Under the pieces are notes generated by a model. The model did no database searches. It was not told where the DNA came from and saw nothing but the letters and a program-made list of their open reading frames with translations. A stretch of 64,000 bases of DNA from Candidatus Heimdallarchaeota archaeon. GTDB lineage: Archaea > Asgardarchaeota > Heimdallarchaeia > Hodarchaeales > Hodarchaeaceae. Shown piece by piece: positions 14,111-54,520 of this stretch (position 1 is its first letter; each line of letters starts with the position of its first letter). The DNA is taken from positions 32,001 through 96,000 of the forward strand of contig RDOB01000007.1 of NCBI GenBank assembly GCA_011364965.1. The letters run 5' to 3'. Position numbers and translations under genes: made by a program.

Positions 14111-14183
14111 GCCGCTGTGGCTTAGTTGGTAGAGCGACAGACTTGTAATCTGTTGGTCGAGGGTTCAAGTCCCTCCAGCGGCT
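14111..14183 (+). tRNA. tRNA-Thr(TGT)
   Basis: GCCGCTG/CAGCGGC acceptor, ACAGA-CT-TGT-AA-TCTGT, GAGGG-TTCAAGT-CCCTC. Confidence 0.97.
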
Positions 14184-14468: not shown

Positions 14469-14882
14469 ATGAATTCGTCTGATTTAACAATTTCATGGAA
14501 CTATCTAGATACGGGTCATTGTGCATTCAAAACCAAGTCAACAAAACCTGGAAAAATTCGATGTAGCCATTTGTTTACTGTTACTGGTGCTCATAAATTT
14601 ACTGATTGCCCATTAATTCAACCAACCTATGTTTCCTTTCAACGCCAAGAAGAACTTGTTTATCTAATAGAGAAACATCCAAAAGAAGCTCCTGCTTCAA
14701 TGTGGGGGTTTACTGAACTTCCAGCAGATAGAGAGAAAGCGAGGAAAATAGTAGAGAAAGCTGTTAAAAATCTTAACCACGATTTAAAACAAACCATCTG
14801 GAACCGCTTTGAACAACAATTTGATGTTGCTGAAGTAGTAAAAGCCAGTGAAGAATTGAAGGAAGAAGAAGAGGAAGATTAG
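14469..14882 (+). CDS. Mak16/eL28-family protein
   Basis: Colinear with the Mak16 N-terminal domain: W..L..GHCAFK, C...F.VTG.....CPL....Y, VYL..K, P..MW....L; acidic tail. Confidence 0.85.
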   Translation: MNSSDLTISWNYLDTGHCAFKTKSTKPGKIRCSHLFTVTGAHKFTDCPLIQPTYVSFQRQEELVYLIEKHPKEAPASMWGFTELPADREKARKIVEKAVKNLNHDLKQTIWNRFEQQFDVAEVVKASEELKEEEEED

Positions 14883-14910: not shown

Positions 14911-14987
14911 AAACGAGCGCCTATGATGAAACCTGACAAGCATGAGAAATTCGATGAAATATTATAGTTACTCTGAGCTGCTCGTTT
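14911..14987 (+). ncRNA. double-guide box C/D sRNA targeting LSU rRNA H69-H71
   Basis: Terminal stem AAACGAGC/GCTCGTTT; C ATGATGA 14923, D' ATGA 14942, C' TCGATGA 14951, D CTGA 14973; guides antisense to the conserved rRNA strings GUAACUAUAA and CUUGUC(A/G)GGU. Confidence 0.88.
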
Positions 14988-15072
14988 TTTTCATTCTATT
15001 CCATTTATGGGCTTTTATCTTGTTGATGAACAATGATGAACAATCTAGCAAACTCTGGAAGTTCATATTGAT

Positions 15073-16188
15073 TTGATATCTTCCAATGAATTTAATTTTC
15101 TAATAGGAAAAAATGTTATTTTATTACGCTTGGGAGGCGAATTGGGAGTAAAAAGTAGACGTACTCGTTCTAGAATGGTCAGGCAATTAAGTTACAATAT
15201 AGAACAAACTCAATCTTTTCAAGCCTGTAGTTCATGTAAAATTACCTCTTATAGAAATCGTTTGGTGATTTGGTCAGAAAATGTAACAGATTGGGCTCCT
15301 TTGGCGAAAGAGATTTCAGAAACGGTCAGTGGGGTCTCTTCGCTTAGTCTCGCTATTGTTCTTGATTCAAATAAAGAAACTATAATATGTAAAGCATATA
15401 ATTCAATAAAAGATGAATTGAGACCCGAAATAAGTTTTGCAGTGAGAGTACGACGAGAAGGAAAACATTCTTACTCGTCAAGAGACATCGCAAGAGAACT
15501 TGGATCGAAAATATTGGAATCTAACATCTTGAATTTAAGAGTTGATCTAGAAAGACCTGATTTAGAAATTTTTCTTGACATTCGAGGCTCTCTTGCCTTT
15601 ATTTATACGCGAATATTGTCCGCAATGGATGGAATTCCTTCTAAAGTTCAGGGTAAAGCGATTATGATTCTTAAACCACATTATAATTCACTTCTTGCTG
15701 CATTTTTAATGAAAAAAAGAGGAGTTGAAATAATTCCTGTTTTTTTTGAAACAGGCCACGAATTAGAGAAGATATTTCAAGATTATACACAAAAACTATT
15801 CTTCCAAAAAATGAGAAAAAGGTCAATTCAATCTAGTTTGGAGAGATTTAAAGATAGTAAATCACTATGTTTTCTCTGTCAGGCTTTTTGTGAGGCCTAT
15901 TGCCAAGAAATCGCTATTAATGAGAATATAGGTACAATAATATCCCCCACCTGCTTCAAATTTAATAAAGAAACTATTTCATTGCCAGCTCTCGAATTCC
16001 TTGAATCTACTTCTAAATTACCTGTGCTTCGTCCAATTCAATTCGGTTATTTTGGTGAAAGTTTAAAACTTGAAGTCCCTGATAGTGGCACATGTTGTAG
16101 ATATCGGTCCACACTAGAAATCCTTATCTCAAATGATATTAAGGAAGCTACAAAGAAATTCTTTGATTTTTCTAGAAAACAAGATTAA
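15073..16188 (+). CDS. THUMP-domain ThiI-like protein with degenerate PP-loop
   Basis: GELGVKSRRTR, SFAVRVRREG, VDLERPD; SGGIDS is replaced by KPHYNS. Confidence 0.85.
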   Translation: MISSNEFNFLIGKNVILLRLGGELGVKSRRTRSRMVRQLSYNIEQTQSFQACSSCKITSYRNRLVIWSENVTDWAPLAKEISETVSGVSSLSLAIVLDSNKETIICKAYNSIKDELRPEISFAVRVRREGKHSYSSRDIARELGSKILESNILNLRVDLERPDLEIFLDIRGSLAFIYTRILSAMDGIPSKVQGKAIMILKPHYNSLLAAFLMKKRGVEIIPVFFETGHELEKIFQDYTQKLFFQKMRKRSIQSSLERFKDSKSLCFLCQAFCEAYCQEIAINENIGTIISPTCFKFNKETISLPALEFLESTSKLPVLRPIQFGYFGESLKLEVPDSGTCCRYRSTLEILISNDIKEATKKFFDFSRKQD

Positions 16189-52899: not shown

Positions 52900-54246
52900 C
52901 TAATTAAGTAAGTTTGTTTTTCCAGTTCTAATAAGAAGTTCAGTAATTGCCTCATTAATTTTAGCTAATTCTAATTCAAATTCTTTGATGAGCTCAAAAT
53001 AATCTCGACTAGCAACTTTCTTCCGTCCTTCTTTTAGCTCTTGAAGTGCTCTTTCGTTCGCCAGTTTTCGAATTCTTAGGTCTCGGAGTCTATCATCAAG
53101 AACCCCAGTTACAAAATCTGGTTCTTCTTTCATCTGTGAGCTGGAATCCTTCTTACTCTTCCCATCATTCATTTCTGATTGGAAATTAATAGCGGAGAGA
53201 ATTTTTTCTTGAAAAATTTCGGAAGACCAATCTCGGAATGGTTCATGTACATAAATATCACTCGGACGACCATAATAGGCTAATTGAAGAGCATCAAAAA
53301 TCCGCATGAGGGTTTTATGGTCAGATCTAAGTTCATAATCATGTTTAATCGTAGTGATTTGTAAAGTATCCCTTTTAATGAATCCTGAGGTAGCTTTCTT
53401 TTGAACATCGATCAGATCTTCAGGGGGAAATTCATCGTATATCACGGCTTTTTGTCCAACAATATTCGTTCTTTTCTTTTGAAACATAACAATACGATCT
53501 GTTGTAATTGATAGATCAATGGGTGTTTTTCTAATGCGACCATTATGCAATTCAATCCCTGAAAAGAATCCTATACCCAATTCACCTGGAATGAAGAAAA
53601 AAATGTCGAAGTAACGGCCTAATTCTTTAGCCATCTGGTCAAATTCATCACATTTTGTTTCAAGAAGGTTAATCATTTCATGAATAGGTTCCAGTTTATT
53701 CAAAACGGTCTGATCAAAGCTAGTGACCTGTTTTTGGAATAATGAAATTTGAAGTGACAGATTTCGATGATCAGTGAAGGCCTCCTCCAGTCCCATAACA
53801 CTTCGGTATAATCGTTTAAGCTTAGCTGCGAATTCTAGGAACTCAGTTAGAACAAAGCTTTCAATTTTTTTGGTCTCAAGAAATATCTGATCAATTTCAT
53901 TTCTTGGATTTAGGAATTGTTTCTTGTATTCCTTTAATCGTGTATCAAGATGCCCTGTCCGTTTAAGTGCAAGAACTGGCCGATATCCAACCTGTTTCAA
54001 TGATTTTTTTAATTCAAAAATAACTTCCACAGCTTCAGCTTTCGGTCCATTTTCTATTGGAGAAGGTTCTATTTCACTAGAACCACATGGACATTTAAGT
54101 CCCCTGCCATTAATTTCTAAATGGGACGCACATTTCTGACAGAAGGAAGCTCCGCATCGTACGCACTTCTGGGAATCAGATTGACGAATCATAGAACCGC
54201 AAAAAGAGCAGTAAAGAGATATAATTTCAGTGACCAATCTCATCAT
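52900..54246 (-). CDS. FYVE-like Zn finger, coiled coil, PH-like and steadiness-box-like protein
   Basis: 8-Cys N-terminus; LSITTDRIVMF PH/GRAM-type strand; C-terminal helical hairpin resembling the neighbouring Vps23 tail. Start is probably near 54246, not 54354. Confidence 0.65.
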   Translation of the reverse strand: MMRLVTEIISLYCSFCGSMIRQSDSQKCVRCGASFCQKCASHLEINGRGLKCPCGSSEIEPSPIENGPKAEAVEVIFELKKSLKQVGYRPVLALKRTGHLDTRLKEYKKQFLNPRNEIDQIFLETKKIESFVLTEFLEFAAKLKRLYRSVMGLEEAFTDHRNLSLQISLFQKQVTSFDQTVLNKLEPIHEMINLLETKCDEFDQMAKELGRYFDIFFFIPGELGIGFFSGIELHNGRIRKTPIDLSITTDRIVMFQKKRTNIVGQKAVIYDEFPPEDLIDVQKKATSGFIKRDTLQITTIKHDYELRSDHKTLMRIFDALQLAYYGRPSDIYVHEPFRDWSSEIFQEKILSAINFQSEMNDGKSKKDSSSQMKEEPDFVTGVLDDRLRDLRIRKLANERALQELKEGRKKVASRDYFELIKEFELELAKINEAITELLIRTGKTNLLN

Positions 54247-54520
54247 CACGTGAGTCCCAGTATGAATAATCCTAACTTTGTTATTTTTAAGCATACAAAT
54301 TCTTGTCATGATATGACGAGATACAAATTGGATGAGTAATGTCAGAATTAACAAAAGCTCTATAAAATTAAATGAATTACAGGAAAGCTCCCTTAAGATG
54401 GTTATTTGACTCCAAATTAGAATGAGAACTGATATTAGGTATCGAATTCTAAAGGATTATAAATTCAATCGAATATACTTCGTTTGAGATTTATCTCTAT
54501 TCAATAGGATAGCTTGTAAT

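Follow-up and report, generated by a model that had tools for sequence, protein, structure and literature searches.

Does the short gap between an L28e/Mak16-family gene and a THUMP-domain gene in a member of the Hodarchaeaceae hold a guide RNA, and if so, which ribosomal nucleotides would that RNA modify? The locus occupies positions 14911–14987 on the plus strand of the 64,000-nt stretch of DNA that was analysed (the window). The original prediction described it as a double-guide box C/D sRNA that installs two methylations of large-subunit (LSU) rRNA conserved in eukaryotes. Hodarchaeales are the proposed sister group of eukaryotes, and in the literature that we searched we found no description of C/D sRNAs from Asgard archaea, Hodarchaeales included.

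A complete box C/D sRNA of about 77 nt can be read in the sequence (Table 1). Every element of the predicted C/D'/C'/D layout is present, including the 8-bp terminal stem, and four unpaired or weakly paired bases separate the 5' strand of this stem from box C. The boxes lie where they had been described, except that C' is better placed three bases further 3', as ATGAAAT. This shift gives both spacers the canonical length of exactly 12 nt, which is optimal for archaeal methylation, and it agrees with homologues that have a better C': ATGAAAT aligns with GTGAGGA in Ignicoccus sR91 and with ATGATGA in the sister family f2. The minimum free energy (MFE) fold contains the terminal stem, lengthened by G–U and C–G pairs. 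Its z-score of −1.29 is not significant, as might be expected of an RNA that is mostly single-stranded guide. The run of seven T residues into which the stem leads is likely an archaeal termination signal with a presumptive terminator function, and T-rich tracts also lie 3' of the stem in most homologues from the genus.

Table 1. Coordinates of the sRNA elements, neighbouring genes and other features discussed in the text (window positions unless a contig is named)
Feature	Position	Strand	Details
tRNA gene	14111–14183	+	75.9 bits; between the PIN-domain gene and the Mak16-like gene
L28e/Mak16-family protein	14469–14882	+	137 aa, acidic tail; PF01778, 43.2 bits
Terminal stem, 5' strand	14911–14918	+	AAACGAGC; pairs with GCTCGTTT at 14980–14987, 8 bp
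Box C	14923–14929	+	ATGATGA; fits RUGAUGA
D' guide	14930–14941	+	12 nt; AACCTGACAAGC = AACCTGACAAG(C); N+5 = C14937
Box D'	14942–14945	+	ATGA (CUGA variant)
D'/C' linker	14946–14953	+	8 nt; 2-bp mini-stem GA...TC
Box C'	14954–14960	+	ATGAAAT, degenerate
D guide	14961–14972	+	12 nt; ATTATAGTTACT = (A)TTATAGTTACT; N+5 = T14968
Box D	14973–14976	+	CTGA; three bases separate it from the 3' strand of the stem
Terminal stem, 3' strand	14980–14987	+	GCTCGTTT; runs into the T-run
Seven-T run	14985–14991	+	Read in the sequence
Second C/D-like stretch	15025–15105	+	Direct repeat GATGAACAAT, twice; contains ATGATGA; overlaps the start of the THUMP gene
THUMP-domain protein	15073–16188	+	Pfam THUMP, 47.7 bits; weak ThiI match; not part of the RNA
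Open reading frame	52900–54354	−	484 aa
C/D-like motif set	54176–54249	−	GTGATGA...CTGA...CTGA; terminal stem; 9-nt LSU match
Fibrillarin and Nop5 genes	C13:85990–87494		Fibrillarin PF01269, 269 bits; adjoining Nop5 PF01798, 218 bits
Orphan LSU 3'-domain copy	G000:C12:515019–515329 (locus L002:7020–7330)	−	About 310 nt; same genome, outside the window

Comparison within the genus (the Ca. Hodarchaeum group) points to a gene under selection. A BLAST search with a 96-nt query returned a single strong match per genome in 22 of 22 genomes, and the architecture was identical across all 22 homologues in the extracted loci. The TGATGA of box C never varies, and the base before it is A in 20 homologues and G in 2; box D is CTGA throughout. 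Among the first 11 nucleotides of the D' guide, ten are invariant; one genome has G at the second, which is unpaired with the target. The 12th base, likewise unpaired, is variable. The D guide contains 11 nt that are invariant in the 22 genomes, variation in its spacer being confined to the first bases. The internal boxes are looser: D' is xTGA in 20 of the 22 homologues and GAAA in 2, and C' has an invariant ATGA core followed by three variable bases. The mini-stem of the linker is GC...GC in most homologues and GA...TC in this genome, with pairing kept. Because the neighbouring proteins are 42–68% identical across the genus genomes and the guides are near-invariant, conservation of the RNA is selective.

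The terminal stem provides a second line of evidence. Its letters differ by lineage (AACGAGC, ATGAGCG, CAGCTGCGA and others), yet the strands pair within each genome: mean duplex energy was −12.0 kcal/mol for a genome's own strands, −7.6 kcal/mol for strands combined across genomes and −4.7 kcal/mol when the 3' strands were shuffled. These per-genome energies were used in place of RNAalifold, which missed the terminal stem in a gapless 78-column alignment of the genus, where the stem register differs between lineages. The element is more than a chance arrangement of motifs.

We asked which rRNA segments the guides could recognize. The host assembly is 87% complete and contains no 16S rRNA and, of the 23S rRNA, only an orphan 3' fragment; we therefore searched for the targets in 23S pieces of two congeners, G005 and G016, in which the sRNAs have the same guides. 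Both 23S sequences contain GGGAGUAACUAUAACUCUC...CCUUGUCAGGUAAG. In this same-genus LSU, the D guide (14962–14972) pairs at 11 of 11 positions with AGUAACUAUAA in the loop of helix 69, and the D' guide (14931–14940) pairs at 10 of 10 positions with CUUGUCAGGU in the 5' strand at the base of helix 71, the latter site lying 32 nt downstream of the former. Both antisense matches had been predicted, the second about 30 nt beyond the first; on the congeneric 23S they amount to 11 and 10 Watson–Crick pairs. The positions predicted for methylation agree as well: in a gapless alignment with E. coli rrlH, the N+5 rule leads to A1913 for the D guide and to G1945 for the D' guide, and both N+5 pairs (U–A1913 and C–G1945) are Watson–Crick. 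When guides were shuffled and searched against 5.7 kb of rRNA with Watson–Crick pairs only, the observed run was reached in 16 of 20,000 shuffles for the D guide and 160 of 20,000 for the D' guide. This test replaced a version that allowed G–U pairs, which was uninformative for the U-rich D guide (348 of 2,000). A further LSU sequence from the genus (G001:C57, locus L003) was set aside as test rRNA, as it differs from the rest of the genus in its helix 69/71 sequence and may be a contaminant.

No better rRNA or tRNA target was found for either guide. That the guides act on other molecules (16S rRNA, tRNA or mRNA) in place of LSU helices 69 and 71 is, in our estimation, very unlikely. The D' guide does have a second match in 16S rRNA near position 235, although this is weaker, with seven Watson–Crick and two G–U pairs, and SNORD27, which targets 18S rRNA, has UGACAAGCAU in common with the window copy. 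The GCAU extension on which a SNORD27-like target would depend is not conserved, however, as guide base 12 varies in the genus, and no tRNA match exceeds 7 nt. We rejected the SNORD27-like 18S/16S target and tRNA targets on these grounds; perfect matches are confined to the LSU sites, which covary with the guides, as described below.

The pairing with helices 69 and 71 also distinguishes this element from other C/D-like stretches. When the entire 2.97-Mb genome was scanned under strict criteria for motifs plus stem, five candidates emerged, and only 14911–14987 had both guides matching rRNA. With C and D boxes, a terminal stem, D' and C' boxes between spacers of about 12 nt, and at least 9–10 nt of complementarity to congeneric rRNA with a Watson–Crick N+5 pair, the element has the sequence features by which such sRNAs are recognized. 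Two other stretches of the window resemble it superficially. The one immediately downstream, built around a direct repeat, matched snoU2_19 with 17.8 bits (E = 5.6), is not conserved in the other 21 genus loci and was dismissed as a chance occurrence. The minus-strand motif set lies inside a long open reading frame and is probably also due to chance.

The orphan LSU fragment of the host genome corresponds to Rfam positions 2721–2973, begins at the sarcin–ricin loop and sits between protein-coding open reading frames. Its identity to the 3' end of the contiguous LSU of a congener is only 79%. Comparable isolated LSU fragments occur in six other genomes of the genus, with two apiece in three genomes.

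Homologues extend far beyond the genus. A sequence-only model built from the genus found weaker homologues in the sister family and in family f4/g5 of the class, and a broader model (R2, from alignment A4) gave one near full-length match each in about 65 of the 151 sampled Asgard genomes that constituted the search range, spanning at least 17 families. Synteny with the Mak16-like gene is restricted to the genus. We inspected 37 of the R2 homologues. In all 37, the D' guide is directed at the base of helix 71 and the D guide at the loop of helix 69, in the same order. Other families carry longer stem-loops at the D'/C' linker; in the g5 copies, a stem-loop of about 30 nt is inserted between D' and C'.

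Where rRNA letters differ, the guides differ with them. Covariation was read only in genomes that also contain their own 23S rRNA. At the D' site, the rRNA reads CUUGUCAGGU and the guide ACCUGACAAG in genus g1 (10 Watson–Crick pairs; CAGGU/ACCUG), CUUGCCGGGU and ACCCGGCAAG in family f21 (10 pairs; CCGGGU/ACCCGG), and UUGUCUAGU and ACUAGACAA in genome G118 of family f14 (9 pairs; CUAGU/ACUAG). Compensation is also seen within a single genus, g5, in which an rRNA CGGAU faces the guide AUCCG in one genome (G022) and CAGAU faces AUCUG in another (G028). In the D duplex, family f3 has G1910C in helix 69 and, in the guide, G in place of C; likewise, where helix 69 has A1918G, the guide has C in place of U. 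Such comparisons strongly support a mode of action in which the RNA pairs with these stretches of rRNA.

The register of the two guides is not equally fixed. The D-guide N+5 falls on A1913 in every genome tested. The D' N+5 falls on G1945 in g1, f14, f21 and f23, on the equivalent of U1946 in g5 and on the equivalent of G1940 in f3. The g5 copies (L089–L093 and L140) have an 11-nt D' spacer, which places N+5 on the U1946 equivalent, and in the f3 copies (L135–L137) the D' guide pairs 5 nt further 5'. Within family f4/g5, the LSU of one genome (G028:C99, locus L006) has about 880 nt inserted between helix 69 and the helix 71 target, so that the A1913 equivalent and CCUUG are 912 nt apart instead of 32 and the LSU match spans 4.1 kb; the insert is probably an rRNA intron or insertion.

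The gene context is conserved over a much shorter range than the RNA. All 22 genus loci, each with a syntenic copy of the sRNA, have the order PIN–tRNA–Mak16-like–sRNA–THUMP–AMMECR1. In the sister family f2, only the THUMP gene still adjoins the sRNA; in g5, neither the Mak16-like nor the THUMP neighbour does, and a search for related loci with the L28e alignment returned the same genus only. The original prediction, which placed the RNA 28 nt behind Mak16, was correct about the gap (the upstream stop codon ends at 14882), and the upstream gene encodes a protein of the L28e/Mak16 family, although the adjacency is limited to the genus. In a comparison with the PDB, the best solved relatives of the upstream protein are Mak16 chains (E = 1e-4) rather than eL28. 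Pfam did not report the Mak16 C-terminal domain PF04874 in this 137-aa protein, in which a short acidic tail replaces the long C-terminal region of Mak16. A histidine also stands where Mak16 relatives have a cysteine in the VTG-x-C motif (VTGAH versus VTGLC). The [4Fe–4S] cluster of Mak16 is reported to be essential for its function (PMC12646323), and L28e/Mak16 homologues have been reported as a signature of Hodarchaeales and Njordarchaeales (PMC10307638).

There is no convincing promoter within the 28-nt gap, and co-transcription with the Mak16-like gene, followed by trimming to a K-turn-protected RNA, is a reasonable inference from this arrangement. The same arrangement could suggest that the stretch does not act in trans at all, being a 3'-UTR or terminator hairpin of the Mak16-like mRNA or a coincidence of short motifs: it starts shortly past the stop codon on the same strand, its stem is followed by seven T residues, it has no clear promoter of its own and its MFE z-score is unremarkable. 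We give this explanation hardly any credence. A terminator would leave unexplained why a near-invariant 11-nt D' stretch and an invariant 11-nt D stretch lie between invariant C and D boxes, why guide and rRNA covary across families and why the same RNA occurs in other gene neighbourhoods, both in other Asgard families and in Ignicoccus.

The proteins expected of a C/D sRNP are encoded in the genome: fibrillarin adjoins Nop5 (Table 1), and two L7Ae-family genes lie on contig C12 (PF01248, 91 and 54 bits). We propose that boxes C and D and the terminal stem would adopt the geometry of a K-turn, and that D' and the degenerate C' would form an internal K-loop or K-turn, on which L7Ae, Nop5 and fibrillarin could assemble. 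Binding of the D guide to the helix 69 loop would then place fibrillarin on the A1913 equivalent, and binding of the D' guide to the base of helix 71 would target the G1945 equivalent. Simultaneous binding of two such nearby sites would probably also help domain IV to fold, adding a chaperone role. The element is very probably a canonical archaeal double-guide box C/D sRNA that directs 2'-O-methylation at the A1913 and G1945 equivalents, an RNA whose transcription, RNP assembly and methylation we infer from sequence. Several observations count against this assignment: C' is degenerate, D' is AUGA rather than CUGA, the MFE z-score is only −1.29, no Rfam family attains its gathering score, the complementarity was measured on congeneric 23S, and the D' site is unfixed across the family.

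An RNA that is made and bound to rRNA could instead serve mainly or only as a folding chaperone for helices 69–71, with one or both riboses left unmethylated. Two guides that bind 32 nt apart are the layout long proposed to assist rRNA folding. Nearby sites are the targets of around 45% of Pyrobaculum sRNAs, and there are conserved guides in which N+5 is mismatched (PMC6009581). The drift of the D' register by 1 or 5 nt between families, with the paired region kept, would also be in keeping with such a role. We nevertheless consider it unlikely that folding is the sole or main function, since both N+5 positions form Watson–Crick pairs, the spacers have the 12-nt length that is optimal for archaeal methylation, the D-guide N+5 never leaves A1913 in the genomes tested and eukaryotes methylate the same two sites. 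Methylation guided at both sites, probably with assistance to folding, is the interpretation that we carry forward.

The pair of targets has a precedent in archaea. Dennis et al. (2015; BMC Genomics 16:632) identified helix 69 as a methylation hotspot, and Ignicoccus hospitalis sR91 is predicted to target 23S A2179 and G2211 (Dennis et al. 2015, Additional file 1; PMC4644070 supplement). As A2178 in that numbering is E. coli A1912, these sites are A1913 and G1945. IHOsR91 has the same order of elements and the same pair of targets as the window RNA and aligns with it box for box and guide for guide; its own C', GUGAGGA, lies 12 nt before its box D. It differs in belonging to a hyperthermophilic crenarchaeon, in its G+C-richer boxes and in its gene context, and its guide letters follow Ignicoccus rRNA (CGGCAAG and CAGAGUUAC). 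Asgard and crenarchaeal copies have only the box order and the targets in common, with guide letters dictated by the rRNA. A partial counterpart is sR113 of Sulfolobus acidocaldarius, whose D guide, UCAGAGUUACU-CUGA, has this adenosine of helix 69, A2179 (printed as A21779), as its predicted target. Unlike in the window RNA, its D' guide has no predicted target, and its 5' half aligns poorly. Two Thermoproteales sRNAs share G2211 as a predicted target (Dennis et al. 2015), and in archaea it is usual for a double guide to address sites that lie close together (PMC7994747). The suggestion that one Asgard guide covers sites that yeast serves with two snoRNAs holds in that each guide matches its site, but the arrangement is neither Asgard-specific nor new, being predicted for Ignicoccus sR91. 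Rather than a new invention, the sRNA is probably one member of a long-established family that is widespread among archaea.

The two sites sit at intersubunit bridges B2a and B3 and have well-described eukaryotic equivalents. Yeast Am2256 is guided by snR63 and Gm2288 by snR75 (PMC5199042). Given that the yeast pseudouridines Psi2258 and Psi2260 are the counterparts of E. coli 1915 and 1917 (PMC2794176), the offset is 343, making Am2256 equivalent to A1913 and Gm2288 to G1945; the correspondence with the two yeast sites in the original prediction is thereby upheld. Plants, human, yeast and Ostreococcus all carry the methylation at the two sites (PMC11542601), and Dictyostelium methylates both by means of separate snoRNAs. 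Gm2288, at the base of helix 71 (bridge B3), is needed together with m5C2278 for the stability of the yeast 60S subunit (PMC4174444).

The eukaryotic guides share targets with the window RNA and differ in organization. Yeast snR63, human U46 (SNORD46) and Dictyostelium CD4 direct methylation of Am2256, Am3739 and Am2522, respectively, the same nucleotide as the A1913 equivalent. Unlike the window RNA, they are single-site and longer, and mostly lack a functional second guide for G1945. Similarly, snR75, Arabidopsis AtU15 and Dictyostelium CD14 target Gm2288, Gm2278 and Gm2554, all equivalent to G1945, although their genes are separate from that of the helix 69 guide and they have no significant match to the window RNA beyond the guide. 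At Rfam gathering thresholds, the window contains one tRNA and no C/D family. Below threshold, it matched SNORD27 (RF00086, 22.1 versus 52 bits), GlsR7 (RF02476, 19.4 versus 75 bits), plasmodium_snoR21 (RF01864, 17.9 versus 90 bits) and snoR442 (RF01232, 15.7 versus 50 bits). In these sub-threshold alignments, Giardia GlsR7 and plant snoR442 have the guide core AUAGUUACU-CUGA in common with the window RNA, and Plasmodium snoR21 has a similar D' guide. Such matches reflect only the boxes and the common guide core.

It is tempting to ask whether the archaeal family is the direct ancestor of the snR63/U46 and snR75 lineages, with the double guide having split into two single-site snoRNAs during eukaryogenesis. 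We consider this descent possible although doubtful. If true, the family would be among the very few guide-RNA genes traceable across the archaeon-to-eukaryote transition, and its site 3' of a ribosome-biogenesis gene in the genus would anticipate the way in which ribosome-related genes host snoRNAs.

The analysis provides a well-supported non-coding RNA annotation for Hodarchaeales. From one archaeal lineage to another, methylation sites are as a rule described as not conserved (Lui et al. 2018). The present family departs from this rule: its target in helix 69 is fixed in all Asgard families tested and its target in helix 71 is kept in most, and both sites are constitutively methylated in eukaryotes. 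What the Asgard data add is conservation across the phylum with guide–target covariation, together with the match to two constitutive eukaryotic 2'-O-methylation (Nm) sites. The family predicts modification sites that could be checked in cultured Asgard archaea, and it offers a concrete case in which to test whether RNA-guided modification of rRNA is continuous between archaea and eukaryotes and whether specific snoRNAs have an archaeal ancestry.
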